Assembly (NCBI RefSeq): GCF_017304635.1
Contig: NZ_JAFKMA010000002.1
Coordinates: 327,244-391,243 of the forward strand
Direction of reading: 5' to 3'
From: Sphingomonas sp.
GTDB lineage: Bacteria > Pseudomonadota > Alphaproteobacteria > Sphingomonadales > Sphingomonadaceae
DNA: 64,000 nt
Part shown: piece after piece, positions 2,831 through 47,588 of the stretch
Layout: every line of letters starts with the position of its first letter
Numbering within the stretch: position 1 is the first letter of the stretch
Notes under the pieces: model-generated
The model's database searches: none
Told to the model about the DNA's origin: nothing
What the model saw: only the letters and a program-made list of their open reading frames with translations
Made by a program: the position numbers and the translations under genes

Positions 2831-4015
2831 TTAGAACGCCGCGATCCCGGTGATCCCCCGGCCGAGGATCAGCGCGTGGACGTCGTGCGCGCCCTCGTAG
2901 GTGTTGACCGTCTCCAGATTCATCAGATGGCGCATGACCTGGTATTCGCCGCTGATGCCGTTGCCGCCGTGCATGTCGCGCGCCGCCCGCGCGATATCGA
3001 GCGCCTTGCCGACATTGTTGCGCTTGACGATCGAGATCATCTCCGGCGCGAACTTGCCCTCGTCCATCAGCCGGCCGACGCGCAAGCTCGCTTGCAGGCC
3101 GAGCGCGATCTCGGTTTCCATGTCGGCGAGCTTCTTCTGGTAGAGCTGGCGCCCGGCGAGCGGCGTGCCGAACTGCTTGCGATCGAGGCCGTATTGCCGC
3201 GCGGCGTGGAAGCAGAATTCCGCCGCGCCCATGCTGCCCCAGCTGATCCCGTAGCGCGCGCGGTTGAGACAGCCGAACGGTCCCTTCAGCCCCTGCACCT
3301 CGGGCAGCAACGCATCCTCGCCGAGCGCGACCTCGTCCATCATCACCATGCCGGTGATCGACGCGCGCAGGGACAGCTTGCCCTCGATCTTGGGCGTCGA
3401 CAGGCCCGTCATGCCCTTTTCGAGCACAAATCCGCGAATGCCGCCGCCGTGCGCGTCGGACTTGGCCCAGATCACGAACACGTCGGCGATCGGGGCGTTC
3501 GAGATCCAGGTCTTGGCGCCCGACAGCGAATAGCCGGTCGCGGTCTTCATCGCGCGCGTCGTCATGCCGCCGGGGTCGGACCCGGCATCGGGCTCGGTCA
3601 GCCCGAACGCGCCGATGAGTTCGCCCGAGGCGAGCTTGGGCAGATATTTCCGCTTCTGTTCCTCCGAGCCGTAGGCATGGATCGGGTACATCACTAAGCT
3701 CGATTGCACCGACATCATCGAGCGATAGCCACTGTCGATCCGCTCGACCTCGCGCGCGACCAGGCCGTAGGCGACGTAGGACGCGCCGACTCCGCCATAT
3801 TCCTCCGGGATGGTCGGGCCGAGCAGGCCGAGCTGGCCCATCTCGCGGAAGATCGCCGGGTCGGTGGTCTCGTTGGCGAAGGCGTCGATGATGCGCGGCG
3901 CGAGCTTGTCCGCGGCATAGGCGCGCGCGGTGTCGCGGACCATGCGCTCGTCGTCGGTCAGCTGATCCTCGAGCAGGAACGGGTCCGCCCAGTCGAAATG
4001 TCCCATGCCGGCCAT
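2831..4015 (-). CDS. gcdH: Glutaryl-CoA dehydrogenase (acyl-CoA dehydrogenase family)
   Basis: FDWADPF N-terminus, [30 protein letters not shown] and [25 protein letters not shown] before ATG 4015. Confidence 0.88.
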
Positions 4016-33781: not shown

Positions 33782-37951
<4,170 letters not shown>

Positions 37952-38020
37952 GTTTTATCTTGCCTCGTCAGCCTAGAATTCGGCCCCGGAACCTCCGGGG
38001 TCAGGCACGCGAACCGACGC

Positions 38021-38069
38021 AAAAAAGCCGCTCGTCCGATCCTTTCTTTCGAGAGGGGACAGCAGCTTT
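38021..38069 (-). terminator. Terminator-like hairpin plus U-run in the rpoB 5' leader (putative attenuator)
   Basis: Minus strand AAAGCTGCTGTCC...GGACGAGCGGCTTTTTT. Confidence 0.55.
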
Positions 38070-38157
38070 CCAGCGTCGAGTTGACCGATCAGCTTCCCAT
38101 TCGCCCGACGCGGTGCGCGACGCCGCATCATTTCCCGAAAGCTGTGGTGGAGCGGCG

Positions 38158-38185
38158 GATATAGGTGCTGTGTTGGATTTGTCAA
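38158..38185 (-). promoter_or_regulatory. Sigma-70-like promoter of rpoBC
   Basis: TTGACA-N16-TATATC on the minus strand. Confidence 0.6.
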
Positions 38186-38356
38186 ACCGCCGGCGCCAGG
38201 TCGATGCGCGCTTTGCCACAAAAAAGTCATCGATCGATTCGGCGGCGGAATCGCCTGAAAAACCGTCGATTATCGCGGCAATCGCACCGTCCGGCTAAAG
38301 TATCGGGCAACCTGGGCAAGGAACCGGACTCGGGTTCCATTCATTGAGTCCGCGTT

Positions 38357-39715
38357 ATGACCCAAGCGAAAAACAAACGCTTCGCCCGCGCACTGGCGCC
38401 GTTCTTCGCCGCCACCGCGCTCGTCTCCATCCCTGCTCTAGCGCAGGACGCGACGCCGCAGACTGCTCAGCCTGTCGTGACGCCGCCGCAAACCGTGACG
38501 GTGCCGATCCCGCCCGTCGTGCCGACCGTGCCGGACAGCGCCACGACGGCGCCGCCGGCCACTAGCGACGAGCCGACCGCCGCGCCGGTCGCCCGCTCGA
38601 CGCGGACGACCGCCACGCGCTCGACGACGGCGACCCGCTCGACCGAGCGTGCACCGGTGCGCAGCGCGTCGACCTCCACCACCACCGCCACCAAGACCAC
38701 GCCGTCGCAACCGGCGGCGACCGCGGCTCCGGCAACGTCATCGACCTCATCGACCACCACGACTTCGACTCCCGCATCCTCCACCGCCGACACGGCGACG
38801 CCGGCTGACACCACGCCCGCCGCCGGTATGCAGTCGGCCGCGACCACGCAGACGACGACGTCGAACGGCATTCCGACCTGGGCGCTGATCGCCGGGGCGA
38901 TCGCGGTGCTCGCGATCATTGCCGGCGCGATCGCGGCGTTGCGTCGCCGCCGCGTCGAGCAAGAATATTATGACGAACCGACCTATGTCGAAGAGCCGTA
39001 TGTCGCGCCCGTTGCCGAGACCCCGGTCGTCGAGGAGCCCGTCGCAGTCGCCCCGGTCGCGGCCGCGCCGCTGGCCGCAGCGCCGCGCAAGGAGCCGGAA
39101 TATCTCCGCGCCGCCGAACCCGCCGCCACGATCGAGCCGGTCGCTGCCGCTGCCGAGGATGTCGAAGTCAGCAAGGTCGCCGACGAGGACGTCGCCGCGC
39201 TGACCGCCGGCGCCGCGGCGGTCGCCGAGCGTCCGTGGCTCGAATTCGCGATGCGCCCGGTCCGCGCCGGCACCAACGTCGACGAGGCTCTGGTCGAGAT
39301 CGAACTGACCGTCGGCAATGCCGGCTCGGTTCCGGCGCAGGACGTCCGCATCTCGACCTTCCTGCTGTCCGGCGATCCGAGCGGGACGGAGATGGAGCGC
39401 CTGCTGGTCGATCCGCCGGCGGAGGCGACCACCGACCCGGTCACGATTAAGCCGGGCGAGGGGACGCGCGTCGATGCGACGCTGGCGCTGCTCAAGTCCG
39501 ACATGGGCGAGAATTTGCCCGCGTCGTTCCGCCCGATCGTCGTCGCCGATGCGCGCTACACGCTGGCCGACGGTAGCGAGGGTCGCACCTCCGCCTCGTT
39601 CGAGATCGGCGTCGAGCCCGAGGAGGGCGGGGCGCTGGAGCCGATCGAACTCGCCCGCGCGTCGATGCACGACAATGTCGCGGCCGAACTCCACGGCGAA
39701 CCGCAACACGCGTAA
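38357..39715 (+). CDS. Type I membrane protein: signal peptide, Thr-rich stalk, TM, cytoplasmic domain (paralogue 1)
   Basis: Signal ending ALA-QD; TM WALIAGAIAVLAIIAGAIAAL followed by RRRR; C-terminal domain homologous to 41942-43153. Confidence 0.85.
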   Translation: MTQAKNKRFARALAPFFAATALVSIPALAQDATPQTAQPVVTPPQTVTVPIPPVVPTVPDSATTAPPATSDEPTAAPVARSTRTTATRSTTATRSTERAPVRSASTSTTTATKTTPSQPAATAAPATSSTSSTTTTSTPASSTADTATPADTTPAAGMQSAATTQTTTSNGIPTWALIAGAIAVLAIIAGAIAALRRRRVEQEYYDEPTYVEEPYVAPVAETPVVEEPVAVAPVAAAPLAAAPRKEPEYLRAAEPAATIEPVAAAAEDVEVSKVADEDVAALTAGAAAVAERPWLEFAMRPVRAGTNVDEALVEIELTVGNAGSVPAQDVRISTFLLSGDPSGTEMERLLVDPPAEATTDPVTIKPGEGTRVDATLALLKSDMGENLPASFRPIVVADARYTLADGSEGRTSASFEIGVEPEEGGALEPIELARASMHDNVAAELHGEPQHA

Positions 39716-39846
39716 CGCCGCGCTGACCTGACGATGGCGCCCGTCCCGGGAGAACGGGGCGGGCGTCGTCGCATCGGCGCCATTGCGCGGTTGTGCTGTA
39801 GCGGCCTAGAACGGCGCATTCTCTTCCTCGCCGGAGCCGCCTCAGC

Positions 39847-41796
39847 ATGTTCAAGACGCTCGCTTTTCTGTCGGTCGCTGCGCTCGCGCTCACCCCCGCC
39901 GTCGCGCAGGATGCGCCCCGAAATGCACCGATGTGGTCGCCCAAGGGCGGCGACGTGCCGGCGAAGTTCACCCCGCCCGAGCGTGGCGTCGCCGATTACG
40001 TCAAGCGCGAGGTGATGATCCCGATGCGCGACGGCGTGAAGCTCTACACCGTGATCGTGATCCCGAAGGGCGCGGTCAACGCACCGATCGTGCTGACGCG
40101 GACGCCCTACAACGCGAAGGGTCGCGCGACGCGCAGCGCCAGCGATCCGTCGATGCTCCGCACGCTGCCGCTCGCCGACGAAGGGTTCGTGCGCAACGGC
40201 TATATCCGCGTCTATCAGGACGTTCGCGGCAAATACGGGTCGGAGGGCGAATATGTCGTGACGCGGCCTGTCATCGGCCCGCTCAATCCGACCAAGGTCG
40301 ATCACGTGACCGACGCATACGACACGATCGACTGGCTGGTGAACAAGGCGAACCTGTCCGAATCGAATGGGCGCGTCGGGATGATCGGGTCGTAGTACGA
40401 GGGGTTCACCGTGGTGATGGCGCTGCTCCACCCGCACCCCGCGCTCAAGGTCGCCGCACCGCAGAGCCCGATGGTCGACGGCTGGATGGGCGACGACTGG
40501 TTCCACTACGGCGCCTTCCGCCTGGCCAACATCGCCTGGCTCGGCGCGCAGACCGGGTACAAGGGCGACGGCAAGGCGCCCTCGACCGGCGGCTGGGACG
40601 ATTACGACAATTTCCGCGAGATCGCCTCGGCGGGGGACTGGGCGAAGAAGTCGGGCTACGACCAGCTGCCCTATTGGACGCGCATGTCGATGCACCCGGC
40701 CTATGACGGCTTCTGGTCGGGCCAGGCACTCGACAAGCTGCTGGCGAAGAGCCCGTCCGACGTGCCGACGATCTGGGAGCAGGGGCTGTGGGACCAGGAG
40801 GACATGTGGGGCGCGATCCACAGTTACGAAGCGCTGACCGGCGCCGGCCACGCGTCGAACAACTTCATCGTGATGGGGCCGTGGCGGCACAGCCAGATCA
40901 ACCGCGTCGGCTACGAGTTGGGGCCGTTCAAGTGGGATGGCGACACCGCGATGCAGTATCGCGAGGACATGATCCTGCCGTTCTTCAACCATTACCTGAA
41001 GGATGGCCCGGCGGTGACGCCGCCCGCGGCGACGATCTACAATACCGGCGAGAACCATTGGGACCGCTTCAGCCAGTGGCCGCTGGCGTGCGAGAGCGGG
41101 TGCCCCTCGCCGCTGACGCCGATCAATTTCGGTGAGGACGGCATGCTCGGTTTCGGCAAGCAGACGGCGGGCGGCGACAGCTACGTCTCCGATCCCGCCA
41201 AGCCGGTGCCGCATCTGCCGCGTCCGGTCAATTTCAACGATGGGCGCTGGGGCGACTGGCTGGTGCAGGACCAGCGTAGCTATGACGGCCGGCCCGACGT
41301 GATGACCTACGAAACGCCGGTACTCGAGCAGGCGGTGCGAGTGTCGGGCGCGCCGATCGCGGACCTGTTCGCGAAGACGACCGGGACCGACGGCGATTTC
41401 GTCGTGAAGTTGATCGACGTCTATCCGACGGAGAATGCGACCGACCCGAAGATGGGCGGGTACCAGCTGGCGGTCAGCCTCGACATCTTCCGTGGGCGCT
41501 ATCGCAAGAGCTTCAGCAACCCCTCTGCGATCCCGGCTAACCAGGTGCAGGAATACAAGTTCCGCCTGCCGATGGTGAACCACGTCTTCCAGCCGGGCCA
41601 CCGCATCATGGTGCAGGTGCAGTCGACGCTGTTCCCGCTCTACGATCGCAACCCGCAGAAATATGTGCCGAACATCTTCTATGCGAAGGCGGGAGACTAT
41701 CAGAAGGCGACGATCACGCTGATGCGCGGCGGTGCGACGCCGAGCCGGGTGTGGTTGCCGGTCGTGCCGCTCGCACCGGCGCAGGTGATCCACTGA
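39847..41796 (+). pseudogene. CocE/NonD-family alpha-amino acid ester hydrolase interrupted by one in-frame TAG (40393-40395)
   Basis: MIGS*YEGFT where the family motif is GSSYEG; both halves are in the same frame; WDQED and GPWRH retained; signal peptide present. Confidence 0.8.
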
Positions 41797-41802
41797 GACG
41801 TC

Positions 41803-41828
41803 GTCGCCCCGGGCTTGTCCCGGGGTCC
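41803..41828. repeat. Single REP-like arm
   Basis: GTCGCCCCGGGCTTGTCCCGGGGTCC directly after the hydrolase stop. Confidence 0.55.
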
Positions 41829-41941
41829 GCCGATCCGCATAGGCGAAGCGCGCGGCGCTAGCGGCACGGTGGAGGATTGCCGGAGCGATTGGCGCTGGCG
41901 GTTGTCAGCGGTTCAGCCAAAGCGGAATAGATGTGGGTGCG

Positions 41942-43153
41942 ATGACGGGTTTCGGGTGGCAGGTGAGGGTGGCGGTGCTGGCGACGGCGGCGCTGGGTCC
42001 GGGCGTGGCGGCGGCGCAGACCAACAGCGCGGCGCCGCAGAGCGTGCCTAACGTGCCGTTCTCGCTGCCGCCGTCGACGCGCCCGACGCCCACGCCGACC
42101 CCGACCTCCGGCCCGGTGGTCGCGCCGTTGCCGACCCCGACACCCAGTGCGACGCCCAGCGCCGCGCCGCCACGTCCGACACCCACGCCCAGCGCCAGCA
42201 GCACGCCGCGACCGACCCCGACCCCGCGCGCCACGCCGACGCCGCGCGCGACGCCTTCGCCGACTCCGACGCCCGGCTCGACGCCGACCGCCGCGCCGAC
42301 CCCCACCGCCACGCCGACGCCGGCCGCCGCGATCCCGGCGCCGGTGCCGAGCGATACCGCGACGCCGCTGCCAGAAGCGACGCCGTCCCCGGTCGCGGTG
42401 CCAGGCGGCATACCGACCGAGGGCTGGCTGGCGATCGTGGCGGCGCTGGCCGCGTTGGGCGCGGCATCCTGGTTCCTGTTCCGCCGCCCACGGCGTCGGG
42501 CCGCCACGCCCGAGCCGATCGTTGTCCGCACGCCGCCCCCGCCATCGCCCGTCGCACCACCTGCGCCGCCGCTGGCCCCGCAACCCGCGCCGCCGCCCGA
42601 GCCGGCGACCAGCTTCCTTACCGTACCGCTTCGTCCACGCAGCCCCGCCGCCGCCAGTGGCGAGCCGCAGGTCGAGATCGTGCTCCAGCCCAAGCGCGCC
42701 GGCACCAACGTCACCAGCGCGGCGGTCGATTATCGCGTGCTAGTCCGCAACGCCGGCGGCGTGCCGGTGCGCGACGTGCGGTTCGCGATGTTCATGCTGA
42801 GCGCCAGCGCCCGCCAGACGCAGGACCTGCAAAGTATCTTCGCCACCCCGATCGACCAGCCCGCGGCCGCGCCGTTCGACCTGCAGCCCAACAGCGAGAT
42901 CGAGCTGACCGGCATGGCGCTGTTGGCGCGCGAGCAGGTCAACGTGATGACGATCGAGGGTCAGCCCTGGTTCGTGCCCGTGCTGGCGATGAAGGCGGAG
43001 TATCGCTGGGGCGAGAATGTCGGCGCGCCGGGCAGCGTCAATGCCGCCTACATGATCGGCATCGATCGCGGGGAGGGGGCGAAGATGGCGCCGTTCCGCC
43101 TCGACGGTGGGCCGCAAATGCATCCGCGCGTGGCGGCGCGGAAGGTCGTCTGA
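41942..43153 (+). CDS. Type I membrane protein: signal peptide, (Pro-Thr)n stalk, TM, cytoplasmic domain (paralogue 2)
   Basis: PT repeats; TM WLAIVAALAALGAASWFLF followed by RRPRRR; RAGTNV and NAGGVPVRDVR shared with paralogue 1; start 41942 or 41933. Confidence 0.85.
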   Translation: MTGFGWQVRVAVLATAALGPGVAAAQTNSAAPQSVPNVPFSLPPSTRPTPTPTPTSGPVVAPLPTPTPSATPSAAPPRPTPTPSASSTPRPTPTPRATPTPRATPSPTPTPGSTPTAAPTPTATPTPAAAIPAPVPSDTATPLPEATPSPVAVPGGIPTEGWLAIVAALAALGAASWFLFRRPRRRAATPEPIVVRTPPPPSPVAPPAPPLAPQPAPPPEPATSFLTVPLRPRSPAAASGEPQVEIVLQPKRAGTNVTSAAVDYRVLVRNAGGVPVRDVRFAMFMLSASARQTQDLQSIFATPIDQPAAAPFDLQPNSEIELTGMALLAREQVNVMTIEGQPWFVPVLAMKAEYRWGENVGAPGSVNAAYMIGIDRGEGAKMAPFRLDGGPQMHPRVAARKVV

Positions 43154-43169
43154 CGTCGGCGGCGTCGGC

Positions 43170-43658
43170 TCAGTTGGGCTTTGCGGTCATCCGGCGGCGT
43201 TCGAGCAACGCGCTGACCTGGTCGGCGAACACCGGCAGCTTGTCCAGATCGGCCTGGACCATCGCTTCGCGCGGGGAACTGTCGAACACGCAGACCGTGC
43301 CGATCCGGGCGCGGTTGGGCGCCTTGATCGGGGCGGCAGCATAGAAACGCACGCCGCCATCCTCGGCAACGAACGGATTGTCGCAGAAGCGGGCATCGAG
43401 CCGGGCGTCGAGCGTGACCGTCACGGCGTCGGTGCCGATGCTGTGCGTGCAGAACGAGATCGCGCGGGGGACGAACGTCGCCGCCACACCGACCCGCGCC
43501 TTGTACCATTGGCGGTCGTCGTCGATGAACGAGATCAGCGCGCGCGGCACGCCGAAGGAATGCGCCATCGCCCGGACCAGGCGATCGAAATCGGGCTCGT
43601 TCGGCGTGTCGAGAATGCCGTAGCTCTTCAACGTGGCGACGCGTTCCGCTTCCTGCAT
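43170..43658 (-). CDS. Stand-alone GAF-domain protein
   Basis: EAERVATLKSYGILDT, QWYKA, SFCTHSI, DNPFV and RFYAAAP...IGTVCV motifs. Confidence 0.85.
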   Translation of the reverse strand: MQEAERVATLKSYGILDTPNEPDFDRLVRAMAHSFGVPRALISFIDDDRQWYKARVGVAATFVPRAISFCTHSIGTDAVTVTLDARLDARFCDNPFVAEDGGVRFYAAAPIKAPNRARIGTVCVFDSSPREAMVQADLDKLPVFADQVSALLERRRMTAKPN

Positions 43659-43802
43659 GACGCCATGGTAACCATATGACGTTGCAAGAGAGTTAAAGCG
43701 GCGGCCATCTAAGCGAACGCAGCTACGAGCCGATCGACGGCACTGGCACGACAAAGAGGCGGCCGGCTTGCGACCGGCGGCCCCTCCATCGACCGTCTAC
43801 GT

Positions 43803-44324
43803 TCAGGCGAAGCGGACGCGAGCGCGCACCGCTGGACGGCGACGCAGCGCGACACCGATCCCACCGAAGCCGAGCATCAGGAACGCCCAGGTCGCCGGCT
43901 CTGGCACGGCGCTGTCGACCTGCGGCGTGATGGTCAGCGTTTCCAGCGGGCCGCCGACTTCGCTGACCGCGATGAAATTGAACAGATCGCCCTTCTGGAT
44001 CGAACCGAAACCGAAATAGCCGTCGAGCATGAAGTTGCCGTTCATCGAGACGAGGTTGCCGGCATTCAGCGTGAAATTGCCGAACACGCCAGCGATCGTC
44101 GCGGTTAGCCCGCTGTACGTCGCCGTGCCCGTCGCCCCGGTGATCTCATAATAATCGCCGTCGTTGGTCGACACCGCATCGTCGGTGGTGAGCAGCGCGT
44201 CGTACGCGATCTCTTCGCCGTTGAAGGCATCGTGCGTGCCGGCGTGCAGGACGAACGTGGCGGCATCGGCCGTCATCGGCGTGAGCGCCATCAGCGCCGC
44301 CGCGGCGATCGATAAGTTCTTCAT
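43803..44324 (-). CDS. PEP-CTERM (PEPxxWA) surface protein 2
   Basis: Signal peptide; VPEPATWAFLMLGFGGIGVALRRR. Confidence 0.93.
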   Translation of the reverse strand: MKNLSIAAAALMALTPMTADAATFVLHAGTHDAFNGEEIAYDALLTTDDAVSTNDGDYYEITGATGTATYSGLTATIAGVFGNFTLNAGNLVSMNGNFMLDGYFGFGSIQKGDLFNFIAVSEVGGPLETLTITPQVDSAVPEPATWAFLMLGFGGIGVALRRRPAVRARVRFA

Positions 44325-44344
44325 TACGCGACCCCTTTTCTGTC

Positions 44345-44359
44345 TTAACGGCGCGTTAA
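44345..44359. promoter_or_regulatory. CtrA-like box (full TTAA-N7-TTAA)
   Basis: TTAA-CGGCGCG-TTAA, 20 bp upstream of PEP-CTERM gene 2. Confidence 0.6.
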
Positions 44360-44433
44360 TCGCGCGGGGCGGCGTCGTCCACTGATTTGGTGGTTAATCT
44401 GTCTATCGGTGGGACGGTGGGTCGGGGAAGAAG

Positions 44434-44469
44434 AAAAGGGCGGCCTCCCGGGGTGGGAGGTCGCCCTTT
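44434..44469 (-). terminator. rplJL intrinsic terminator
   Basis: Minus strand AAAGGGCGACCTCCC...GGGAGGCCGCCCTTTTCTT. Confidence 0.85.
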
Positions 44470-44480
44470 CCTTTGGCCTG

Positions 44481-44597
44481 GTAAGCCGTGACGGGAATTA
44501 ATCCCGTCACGTCGGTCGGGTCGCGGAGCGACCCGCCGGCCGGCCTTGCGTGGTGCGATTTAGCGTTTGCTAAATCGTCTCCACGCCAGCGGCTTAC
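44481..44597. other. Multi-hairpin structured element in the rplL 3' UTR
   Basis: Closing stem GTAAGCCG/CGGCTTAC enclosing three perfect hairpins of 9, 8 and 9 bp. Confidence 0.65.
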
Positions 44598-44974
44598 TTG
44601 AGCTCGACGGTCGCGCCGGCTTCTTCCAGCTGCTTCTTGATCTTCTCGGCCTCGTCCTTGTTGACGCCTTCCTTGACGGCCTTTGGGGCCGACTCGACCA
44701 GCGTCTTCGCCTCGGTCAGGCCGAGACCGGTGATCGCGCGGACCTCCTTGATGACGTTGATCTTCTTGCCGCCGTCGCCGGTCAAGATGACGTCGAATTC
44801 GGTCTTCTCTTCGGCGGCGGGAGCGCCACCGCCGGCGCCACCGGCGGCCGGCGCGGCCGCAACCGCAGCGGCGGCCGAAACGCCCCACTTCTCTTCGAGC
44901 AGCTTCGAGAGCTCGGAAGCCTCGAGGACGGTCAGTTCGCTCAGCTGGTCAACCAGCGCGTTCAGGTCTGCCAT
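44594..44974 (-). CDS. rplL: 50S ribosomal protein L7/L12
   Basis: LTVLEASEL...[15 protein letters not shown] and GLGLTEAK. Confidence 0.98.
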
Positions 44975-45037
44975 GTTCAATCTCCAATTCGGGCACGTCG
45001 GCCCCTCGTTTCTGTCAAAAACCAAAGCGCCCGATAA

Positions 45038-45553
45038 TCAGGCTGCTTCCTTCTCCGCATGCGCCGCAAGGACACGCGCGATCTGGGCCGCCGGAGCCTG
45101 CGCGATCGTCGCGAGCTTGGTGGCGGGCGCCACCAGCAGGCCGACAATCTTGGCACGCAGTTCATCCAGCGACGGCAGCGTCGCCAGCGCCTTGACGCCG
45201 TTCACGTCGAGGGAGGTCGCGCCCATCGCGCCGCCGACGATTTCGAGCTTGTCGTTCGTCTTGGCGAAGTCGACCACCACCTTGGCGGCGGCGACCGGGT
45301 CGATGGAAGTGGCGAGACCGACCGGCCCGGTGAGCAGGTCGCCCAGCGAGAGATAGTCGGTGCCGTCGAGCGCGATCTTGGCAAGCTTGTTCTTCGAGAC
45401 CTTGTAGGTCGCACCGGCCTCGCGCATCTTCGTCCTGAGCTGCGTCGACTGCGCGACGGTCAGGCCGAGGTTGCGGGTGACGACCACCACACCAACCTCG
45501 GAGAAGGTCTGCTTGAGATCGGCAACGGCCGCGGCCTTTTGAGCACGATCCAT
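45038..45553 (-). CDS. rplJ: 50S ribosomal protein L10
   Basis: [14 protein letters not shown] and [18 protein letters not shown]. Confidence 0.98.
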
Positions 45554-45723
45554 GCCATTCTCCACGTTTGGGGAAGCTTACGCCTCCCCGGTTCAACACA
45601 GCCGAACGGGCGGACCCGCGCGGCCAGATTTTCCGTCGATCAAGGGGCATGGCGCCTGGCCGCGCTCGTCATGGAGAAGCGGCAGTCCGACCGCGCATGG
45701 ACGCGCGAGCGGTAAATTCCATT

Positions 45724-45777
45724 CCCCGTCTAGGCAGGGCATTAAGCGGGAAACCCGCACCTGCTGTCTCGGACGGT
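45724..45777 (-). promoter_or_regulatory. L10 leader (ribosomal protein autoregulatory RNA)
   Basis: CCGTCCGAGACAGCAGG...TTAA...CCTGCCTAGACGG upstream of rplJ. Confidence 0.75.
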
Positions 45778-45817
45778 AACGCGAGCGGGCGGCAAGCCGT
45801 CCCCAAGCGAAGGCGCG

Positions 45818-45846
45818 CCGATACGGAGGGAAGGCGGGAAAGTCAA
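45818..45846 (-). promoter_or_regulatory. Sigma-70-like promoter of rplJL
   Basis: TTGACT-N17-TATCGG on the minus strand. Confidence 0.45.
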
Positions 45847-45941
45847 CGGTGGGTGTCGGGCGCACGGCGGCGCTGGGCATTGCGGCAGTTGGGTGGATTG
45901 CGGACGTTGCTCTTCAAACCGTCATGCGGCAACCTATCGCC

Positions 45942-46382
45942 ATGGCCATGCCCGCACGAGGTGCTGACGAAGAACTGCTGGCCTCGTTGGCGAGGTGGAG
46001 CAGTTTAGTGCTCATCCCTGGAATGCTGTTTGTGTTCGGCCTGATATATGCGGTTTCGCCTCGTCATATCCCGCCGACAGCGGAGTGGGCTGATGGCACC
46101 TATACGAACGCATGTTGCGGGCCACTTGTTCTAAAGAACGGAATTATCAAAGCAGGTGGCAGGTTGGCTCACTACGTTGTAGCGGAGGACAAATTTGGCC
46201 GTATGATAAATGTGAGTGAGGGCATCGGTGTCAGCGGCAATGCCGTTAAGTTCGGCGGCACCTTTGTGTTCGTCCATTTCAATGACAACAGCATGGCACA
46301 GCCAGCGATCGGCGAGGCCAAGTCGATGCATCTAACCGGGTTAGATGACGACGCGGATTTCACGTTCGTCAAACAGAAATAA
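45942..46382 (+). CDS. Low-GC hypothetical membrane-anchored protein
   Basis: One TM (LVLIPGMLFVFGLIYAV); about 53% GC by hand count over 45961-46380; start uncertain (45849-45948). Confidence 0.6.
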   Translation: MAMPARGADEELLASLARWSSLVLIPGMLFVFGLIYAVSPRHIPPTAEWADGTYTNACCGPLVLKNGIIKAGGRLAHYVVAEDKFGRMINVSEGIGVSGNAVKFGGTFVFVHFNDNSMAQPAIGEAKSMHLTGLDDDADFTFVKQK

Positions 46383-46518
46383 AAAACGCAGCAGCCTCTC
46401 GCACCGTCTACCATTGGGTCGTTACCCGCCATTGTCCCAGCGTACGACATCGCGCGGTCCCTCGTCACTCCGCCACCATCGCTTGCCCTCGTCCCGCCCC
46501 CCGGCTAATCGCTCGCTC

Positions 46519-46911
46519 ATGAGTATCAACCTCAATCCCTTCACCTGGTGGACCGGCGCGAGCTGGGGCACGATGCTCGGCCTGATCGGCAAGACCAAGG
46601 TCGGGGAGGACGAGCTCGGCAACGTCTATTACGAGGGCGGGCGCGATACCGCGGGGCGGCCGCGGCGTTGGGTGATCTATGTCGGCGCGAACGATGCGAG
46701 CCGGGTGCCGCCCGACTGGTTCAGCTGGCTCCATCACCAGATCGACGACGTGCCCGACCGCGCCTTGCCGCCGCAACGGCGGTGGGAGAAGCCCGCCGTG
46801 CCCAACCTGACCGGTACTGCGCTGGCCTATCGCCCGCCGGGCGCTCTCGAAAAGGGCGGGCGGCGCGCGGCGGCGACGGGCGATTACGAAGCCTGGACGC
46901 CCGACGAATGA
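46519..46911 (+). CDS. NDUFA12-family protein
   Basis: VGEDELGNVYY, RRWVIY and ASRVPPDWFSWLHH motifs. Confidence 0.9.
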   Translation: MSINLNPFTWWTGASWGTMLGLIGKTKVGEDELGNVYYEGGRDTAGRPRRWVIYVGANDASRVPPDWFSWLHHQIDDVPDRALPPQRRWEKPAVPNLTGTALAYRPPGALEKGGRRAAATGDYEAWTPDE

Positions 46912-47588
46912 ACACGCGCCGCGTCGTCGGCATCGCGGCGGCGCTGGCGGGGGTCGGCGCGCTGGGCTGGGCGGGATACGACCATTTCGTCGCGCGCGCG
47001 CCCGCGCCGCAGCAGCAGACCGCGACGGCCGAGCCGCCGGCGACCTCGCTCGACGATATCGGCGTGTCCGGCGGGGTCGAGACGGTCGACGTGTCGGGCG
47101 ACGCCAACCCCGAGGCCGGCACGACGCCGATGAAGGATCGCGTCGCGGTGCTCGGCCTGCTCAACAAGCGTAACGGCCAAGCGCGCGACCTGAAGCTGAA
47201 ACCCGGCGAGGCGGCGCGGGTCGGCAACGTCGTCGTCCGCCTGCGCGCGTGCGAACAGACCGCGCCGTGGGAGGCCGAGCATTATACCGGCGCGTTCGTC
47301 CAGCTCGACATCGAGCAGAGCGACAAGAGCTGGAAGCGGGTGCATTCGGGCTGGCTCTACAAGGAGCGGCCGTACCTCAACGTCGTGCAGGATCCGGTCT
47401 ACGACGTCTGGGTCAAGAGCTGTACGATGTCCTTCCCCACCGGCGGGCCGGACACGGTGTCGGCGGCGGCTGCGGCGGCGAGCGGGGCCAGGCGATCGAG
47501 CGCGCCGAAGTCGCCTACGGCCGGGACGGCGGCGACCGACGATGCCGCGCCGAGCGAACCGAGTGCCGCGCCCAGCAACGCGACGTAA
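46908..47588 (+). CDS. DUF2155-family protein
   Basis: RVAVLGLLNKRNG, RLRACE, GAFVQL, SGWLY and DPVYDVWVKSC. Confidence 0.85.
   Translation: MNTRRVVGIAAALAGVGALGWAGYDHFVARAPAPQQQTATAEPPATSLDDIGVSGGVETVDVSGDANPEAGTTPMKDRVAVLGLLNKRNGQARDLKLKPGEAARVGNVVVRLRACEQTAPWEAEHYTGAFVQLDIEQSDKSWKRVHSGWLYKERPYLNVVQDPVYDVWVKSCTMSFPTGGPDTVSAAAAAASGARRSSAPKSPTAGTAATDDAAPSEPSAAPSNAT

Follow-up and report, generated by a model that had tools for sequence, protein, structure and literature searches.

An amber codon at the nucleophile position of a Sphingomonas alpha-amino acid ester hydrolase gene: a probable recent nonsense mutation

Introduction

A gene that reads as an intact enzyme from start to stop, save for a single TAG placed exactly where the catalytic serine belongs, raises the question of whether the gene is dead, whether the stop is decoded, or whether the base is real. 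Such a gene lies in the 64,000-nucleotide stretch of Sphingomonas sp. DNA analysed here (assembly GCF_017304635.1, contig NZ_JAFKMA010000002.1, positions 327,244 to 391,243; hereafter the window), and its product belongs with the alpha-amino acid ester hydrolases (AEHs) of the S15/CocE-NonD group. The original prediction, made from the sequence of the window, drew attention to the amber codon and considered a very recent mutation, a base-calling error, selected inactivation and conditional read-through. We think it likely that this AEH orthologue was inactivated by one recent C-to-A nonsense mutation, with neutral decay as the most probable course.

Results

An AEH gene with one interruption

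The frame opens with ATG at 39847 and runs through 182 sense codons to TAG at 40393-40395; 466 sense codons follow, and the frame closes with TGA at 41794-41796. The letters at 40381-40410 are ATG ATC GGG TCG TAG TAC GAG GGG TTC ACC, or MIGS*YEGFT in translation. When the stop is read through, the 649-residue product (P0001) matches Pfam PF02129 (Peptidase_S15) over residues 62-350 (2.7e-65) and PF08530 (PepX_C) over residues 477-635 (7e-22), and it scores 256 bits against the NCBIfam model TIGR00976 (CocE_NonD), which has a cut-off of 66. The product thus has the S15 alpha/beta-hydrolase domain and the PepX_C beta-sandwich domain that mark the AEHs. Its best matches in the PDB, found with phmmer, are 2b4k, 1nx9, 1ryy and 1mpx (E = 1e-246 to 1e-248, residues 21-641), and the name-bearing database matches, at 77-85% identity, all come from Sphingomonas. 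Judged by its sequence, the locus is the Sphingomonas orthologue of AEH by descent and a pseudogene by function.

A 745-codon open frame spans the whole gene on the minus strand (39556-41793). It is the usual antisense artefact of high-GC DNA, and no gene.

The stop codon replaces the catalytic serine

An AEH is recognised by its Ser-His-Asp triad, by a pair of oxyanion tyrosines, and by an Asp, Glu, Asp carboxylate cluster to which the substrate's alpha-amino group binds; in XrAEH the triad is Ser175/Asp308/His341 (PMC3890990). In the phmmer alignment the TAG codon falls on the second S of GSSYEG in 2b4k, which is Ser205 of the Acetobacter turbidans AEH, and the engineered alanine of the S205A mutant (1nx9) stands in the same column; the stop therefore replaces the nucleophile exactly. 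All eight AEH-defining columns are invariant in 15 Sphingomonas orthologues, and the window gene keeps seven of them. The triad Asp and His, both oxyanion tyrosines and the carboxylate cluster are each in place, with Asp316 and His348 spaced from the serine position as in the XrAEH triad. The remaining column is codon 183 itself, in the GxSYxG elbow, which is TAG here and serine in all 23 relatives compared. No hydrolysis or synthesis of alpha-amino acid esters or amides would be expected of this allele.

On these points the original prediction was sound. Re-reading the letters returns its amber stop within MIGS*YEGFT, the structural alignments confirm that TAG stands in place of the GxSYxG nucleophile, and its intact acid (WDQED) and histidine (GPWRH) motifs are there in both the translation and the orthologue alignment. 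Its 467-codon continuation is indeed open, except that the count takes in the final stop and so corresponds to 466 sense codons.

Origin and age of the mutation

The 23 relatives write the catalytic serine as TCC (n = 13), AGC (n = 7) or TCG (n = 3). The nearest orthologue, locus L004 of genome G009, reads ATG ATC GGG TCG TCG TAC GAG in an identical 21-nt context, and a single C-to-A step therefore yields TAG. There are 197 single-base changes, at 147 codons, that could create a stop in this gene; since 134 of them yield TAG, this is also the expected type of stop.

The signs of age all point to a young lesion. The 1947 nt of the gene contain no second stop or frameshift, and the GC content of third codon positions is 0.83 over the 70 codons 5' of the stop and 0.97 over the 70 codons 3' of it. 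At sites conserved in 13 outgroup orthologues, this genome (G000) carries 13 lineage-specific amino-acid changes against 9 in G009, and there is therefore no sign of relaxed constraint. A premature stop where the orthologues are open, with no further decay, is the picture of a recent pseudogene; taking ~0.2 disabling events per neutral substitution, it suggests that neutral divergence since the hit is below about 1%. Three similarity searches yielded no allele more than 89% identical, and a sister strain in which to compare the codon was thus not found. The TCG of the nearest orthologue in its matching context agrees with the proposal that TAG lies one substitution from TCG, and together with the missing second lesion and the absence of excess change it supports what the original prediction favoured, a very recent nonsense mutation or a base-calling error.

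The sequence of events that we favour is a simple one. A C-to-A change would have converted the serine codon TCG to TAG, and release factor 1 (RF1) would terminate there to leave a 182-residue N-terminal fragment without the nucleophile. Any product restarted at the GTG GTG ATG that follows would have neither the signal peptide for export nor the serine, so that the locus would be a null allele. The loss would be very recent. Counting it, at least five genes for exported, dispensable proteins have young loss-of-function lesions in this strain.

Orthologues in other Sphingomonas

We surveyed 200 other species genomes of the genus, counting as orthologues matches with E below 1e-200. The AEH orthologue was found in 144 of them, and 143 of the 144 matches have no internal stop. 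Among the 165 higher-quality genomes searched, 39 yielded no orthologue, and the gene therefore appears dispensable. Eight matches in other genomes were flagged for stops, and four of these were read, including all three at >70% identity that are not cut by a contig end. Three of the four stops are terminal and one match is a true pseudogene, in genome G160; several paralogues and orthologues of relatives flagged in the same way also had terminal stops, G160 excepted. Nonsense loss of the gene thus occurs in roughly 1 in 100 species.

The G160 pseudogene (contig C101, locus L053, 31200-33400, minus strand) is 80% identical to the window gene and has TAG (CCC TAG TCG) 11 codons upstream of the serine. 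It is otherwise open and has in addition a W-to-R change at the conserved DTIDW motif. Like the window gene it has a single TAG in an otherwise open frame; it differs in that another codon was hit (a change of the GAG-to-TAG type), in an independent event, and in that its S15 paralogue is intact.

The flanking genes point to the same ancestry. The hydrolase gene lies between two paralogous membrane-protein genes (Table 1), and this three-gene arrangement is conserved in the nearest relative, G009. From these conserved neighbours, the orthology of the window gene with the G009 copy is secure.

Five further proteins (P0240, P0263, P0304, P0321 and P0337), 179-245 aa long, comprise the N-terminal part of an AEH followed by a frameshifted tail; they lie on long contigs of other genomes or metagenomes. 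All five keep GSSYEG. They represent either occasional decay of AEH genes or indel errors of long reads.

Other broken genes of the genome

We searched the whole genome for frames that are broken by one stop and carry a coding signal on either side of it. Of the 117 candidates returned, almost all proved to be neighbouring genes or frames on the antisense strand, and four are genuine single-nonsense genes: the AEH gene (TAG), a GH2 glycosidase (TGA), a PEP-CTERM protein (TAG) and a TonB-dependent receptor (TAA). Independent Logan assemblies of runs SRR13325167/168/175/179/180 contain the truncated products of the last three, identical in every letter.

The sole other gene of the genome with S15 and PepX_C domains (G000:C7:1352293-1354130, minus strand), ~40% identical to the AEH gene, is broken as well. 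A perfect 77-bp tandem duplication has shifted its frame; no other perfect tandem duplication in the 3.18 Mb genome has a period >41 bp. Two independent k=31 Logan contigs both end at C7:1353741, exactly 30 nt (k-1) inside the repeat unit, which is the graph branch point expected if the duplication junction is present in the reads. An origin as a k=77 contig-joining artefact was ruled out: the repeat is the only one of its kind, the contig-end overlaps of this assembly are 149 bp, and there are the two k=31 breaks 30 nt into the unit. Upstream of the duplication, neither the N-terminal partial product nor the glpX-like neighbour had a match when looked up. Other PF02129 matches in the genome are intact S9 peptidases (GWSYGG) and were rejected as further S15 members. 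The S15 paralogue is intact in G009, G061, G085 and G160.

All five lesions, the four nonsense codons and the duplication, lie in genes for exported proteins. Random errors would mostly strike cytoplasmic genes, and the pattern would fit real mutations filtered by selection.

Table 1. Positions of the AEH gene, its active-site codons and neighbours (window coordinates), and of the other lesions (genome coordinates, prefixed G000)
Feature	Position	Strand	Basis or remark
Interrupted AEH gene (S15/CocE-NonD)	39847..41796	+	649 codons, one interruption
Signal-peptide-like N-terminus, putative, MFKTLAFLSVAALALTPAVAQ	39847..39909	+	by eye from translation
Tyr88, first oxyanion-hole tyrosine (RTPYN), intact	40108..40110	+	invariant in 15 orthologues; role per PMC3890990
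TAG for the catalytic serine codon, residue 183	40393..40395	+	alignment to AEH structures
Tyr184, second oxyanion-hole tyrosine, intact	40396..40398	+	orthologue alignment; PMC3890990
GTG GTG ATG, possible restart codons, 6-8 codons 3' of the stop	40411..40419	+	read from sequence
Asp217 of the carboxylate cluster, intact	40495..40497	+	orthologue alignment; PMC3890990
WDQED: triad Asp316, cluster Glu318 and Asp319, intact	40789..40803	+	residues 315-319
His348 of the triad in GPWRH (344-348), intact	40888..40890	+	orthologue alignment; PMC3890990
Upstream neighbour, 452-aa membrane-anchored low-complexity protein	38357..39715	+	same neighbour in G009/L004, 69% identity
Downstream neighbour, 403-aa paralogue of the upstream protein	41942..43153	+	beside the orthologue in L004, 56% identity
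Perfect 77-bp tandem duplication, frameshifting the S15 paralogue	G000:C7:1353712-1353865 (locus L002 ~2920-3073)	minus	ends 4 codons before the GVSYPG serine
TAT-signal GH2 glycosidase, TGA at LPHD[W]	G000:C7:203526	minus	genome scan
TonB-dependent receptor, TAA	G000:C6:121184	minus	genome scan
PEP-CTERM protein, TAG	G000:C6:148467	plus	genome scan

Independent assemblies around the stop codon

Logan contigs of runs SRR13325167, 168, 176, 179 and 180 match the window at 100% identity from 37532 to 40262 and from 41245 to 47270. The exact protein of the upstream neighbour is present on Logan contigs of five runs, and that of the downstream neighbour is likewise found on Logan contigs. One contig ends at 40034, where the 30-mer blocks that relatives share also end; this marks the runs as mixed communities, whose assemblies fragment in the conserved middle part of the gene. 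Repeats within the genome were ruled out as the cause of contig breaks inside the AEH gene, as the terminal 30-mers are unique in G000.

Exact look-ups of the read-through protein, of both fragments, and of 17 guessed partial products, built from the observed contig ends plus the k-1 overlap, found none on record. Scans of JGI metagenomes and GTDB genomes for exact 46-nt patterns, the variable base being written as N, gave no match, and a literature search by the SRR accessions found no paper.

Discussion

Weighing the explanations

Several observations weigh against a neutral nonsense mutation as the whole story. Exactly one of the 197 possible nonsense changes falls on codon 183, so that a hit on the nucleophile is improbable a priori (~0.5%). 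The Logan contigs do not cover 40263-41244, and hence not the codon at 40394; the runs that contain this strain are mixed communities including other Sphingomonas, and a consensus could mask a TCG/TAG polymorphism; and the assembly has at least one likely artefact, a ~83-nt poly-C run in an intergenic spacer (G000:C7:726301-726383), which two-colour sequencing chemistry probably produced as a poly-G artefact, bridging two contigs. Lastly, both S15 genes are broken, the paralogue 4 codons before its serine, and neutral decay leaves this clustering unexplained. All but the last of these observations would favour the alternative that TAG is an error of the consensus or of base calling, or else a minority allele that the assembler took from a mixed population, with an intact TCG in the living gene. 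So do the ends of contigs C1/C7, C3/C7 and C1/C4 of G000, which overlap or share exactly 149 bp; this suggests a very-large-k assembly graph or an overlap assembler, and that some contigs are joinable. We nevertheless regard an error or minority allele as unlikely. Short-read assemblers create no k-mers, so TAG was presumably read many times, and the assembly's three other nonsense codons and the duplication recur in independent assemblies of several runs. C-to-A changes outside a homopolymer are not typical of consensus errors, and this one stands outside a homopolymer. Nor could a chimera with co-occurring relatives have produced TAG, as these have TCC, TCG or AGC. If the base is real, it could still be decoded, by programmed or conditional read-through, a suppressor tRNA or recoding of the pyrrolysine type, to give a full-length protein. 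All that speaks for this is that the stop lies at so striking a place and that the frame stays fully open beyond it; we hold the reading to be extremely improbable. ARAGORN finds 49 tRNAs in the 99.9% complete assembly, none with a CUA anticodon, which answers the search for suppressor tRNAs that the original prediction had proposed; PylS was not found (best match to TIGR02367 18.9 bits against a cut-off of 178), and RF1 is intact (prfA scores 484 bits, with a cut-off of 423). TAG serves as an ordinary stop in this genome, terminating 401 of 1873 long high-GC3 open reading frames (~21%), and the other broken genes of the genome have TGA and TAA too. The base after the stop is T, and no RNA structure for read-through is apparent: 40393-40500 folds at -41.9 kcal/mol, where shuffles average -44.4 (z = +0.63). 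Relatives encode the serine by ordinary codons in all 23 cases. Near-cognate read-through of UAG is expected to insert Gln, Tyr, Trp or Lys, not Ser, and a leaky read-through product would therefore still be dead. The conditional read-through that had been raised for this codon thus finds no support in tRNA, PylS, RF1, stop usage or structure.

A third alternative, the selected inactivation that the original prediction had raised, accepts the mutation and questions its neutrality. The activity of S15 amino-ester or peptide hydrolases may have been harmful, as it would be if it converted an aminoacyl or peptidyl pro-toxin to its active form, and selection may have knocked out the two family members independently. 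The genome's only two S15 + PepX_C genes are indeed both freshly broken, one at the serine and the other just before it, by a duplication that is unique of its kind in 3.18 Mb; with only four single-nonsense genes in the genome, a second hit in so small a family is unexpected if the two are independent, and the paralogue is intact in the four relatives named above. Selection, however, would not prefer the nucleophile codon over the other 196 nonsense changes, and relaxed selection on a shared, now useless function accounts for the double loss just as well. The breakage of three unrelated exported proteins suggests a general decay of accessory envelope functions; the AEH gene is apparently dispensable, given the 39 higher-quality genomes in which no orthologue was found, and in G160 it is broken yet the paralogue is intact. 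Selected loss is thus a decidedly unlikely account. A related thought, to which we give still less credence, is that S15-type lesions may cluster at the nucleophile elbow beyond chance, as the AEH TAG, the paralogue duplication and the G160 TAG would suggest; the chance that the G160 stop falls within 11 codons of codon 183 is ~3.6%. These coincidences were noticed post hoc and comprise three events, and we record them as unexplained and claim no pattern. Were the clustering true, it would mean positive selection against the activity (pro-toxin resistance, for instance) or a mutational or selective bias for truncation just before the serine.

A recent, neutral loss through a nonsense mutation remains our preferred explanation. 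We take the hit on the nucleophile codon for a coincidence, since a stop at any other nonsense site would have been just as fatal to the enzyme. Among ~250,000 windows, with nonsense pseudogenes at ~1/1000 genes and ~0.5% of them hit on the nucleophile, dozens of such cases would arise by chance. The presence of the base in the DNA, the neutrality of the loss and the absence of full-length protein are the parts of this account that we infer. The findings speak for a dead gene, ordinary and very young, and for no new reading of the genetic code.

Implications

The proper annotation of the locus would be an AEH pseudogene with an internal stop. AEHs serve in making cephalexin- and ampicillin-type antibiotics. 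This strain would be unsuited as a source of an AEH biocatalyst, and a catalogue hit here would be to a dead enzyme. The strain shows a coherent set of very recent knock-outs among its exported proteins, both S15 hydrolases being part of it, and the SRR13325167-180 series could be used to track ongoing gene loss in a community. The approach also has a wider use: lesions in an assembly can be checked without the reads, through truncated products and graph break points in independent assemblies.

Comparison with known systems

The closest characterised relatives are the AEHs of A. turbidans (2b4k, 2b9v, 1ryy) and Xanthomonas citri (1mpx). The GSSYEG elbow, WDQED, GPWRH, the oxyanion tyrosines and the carboxylate cluster all align with theirs, and the two-domain S15 + PepX_C build is the same; unlike them, the window allele has a stop as its nucleophile codon, and no active enzyme could be made from it. 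CocE (PDB 1ju3 and others) and the CocE/NonD subfamily TIGR00976 belong to the same fold family, but CocE is much more distant (E ~1e-48), and the AEH-specific carboxylate cluster groups the window gene with the AEHs. The pyrrolysine and suppressor-tRNA systems of UAG decoding share with this locus an in-frame TAG inside an otherwise intact enzyme gene; their machinery was not found in this genome, where TAG is a normal stop. A further parallel is the S205A mutant of 1nx9, in which the same residue was removed as at the window TAG. That mutant is a laboratory-made, full-length, folded and inactive protein, whereas from the window allele a 182-residue fragment is all that would be expected.

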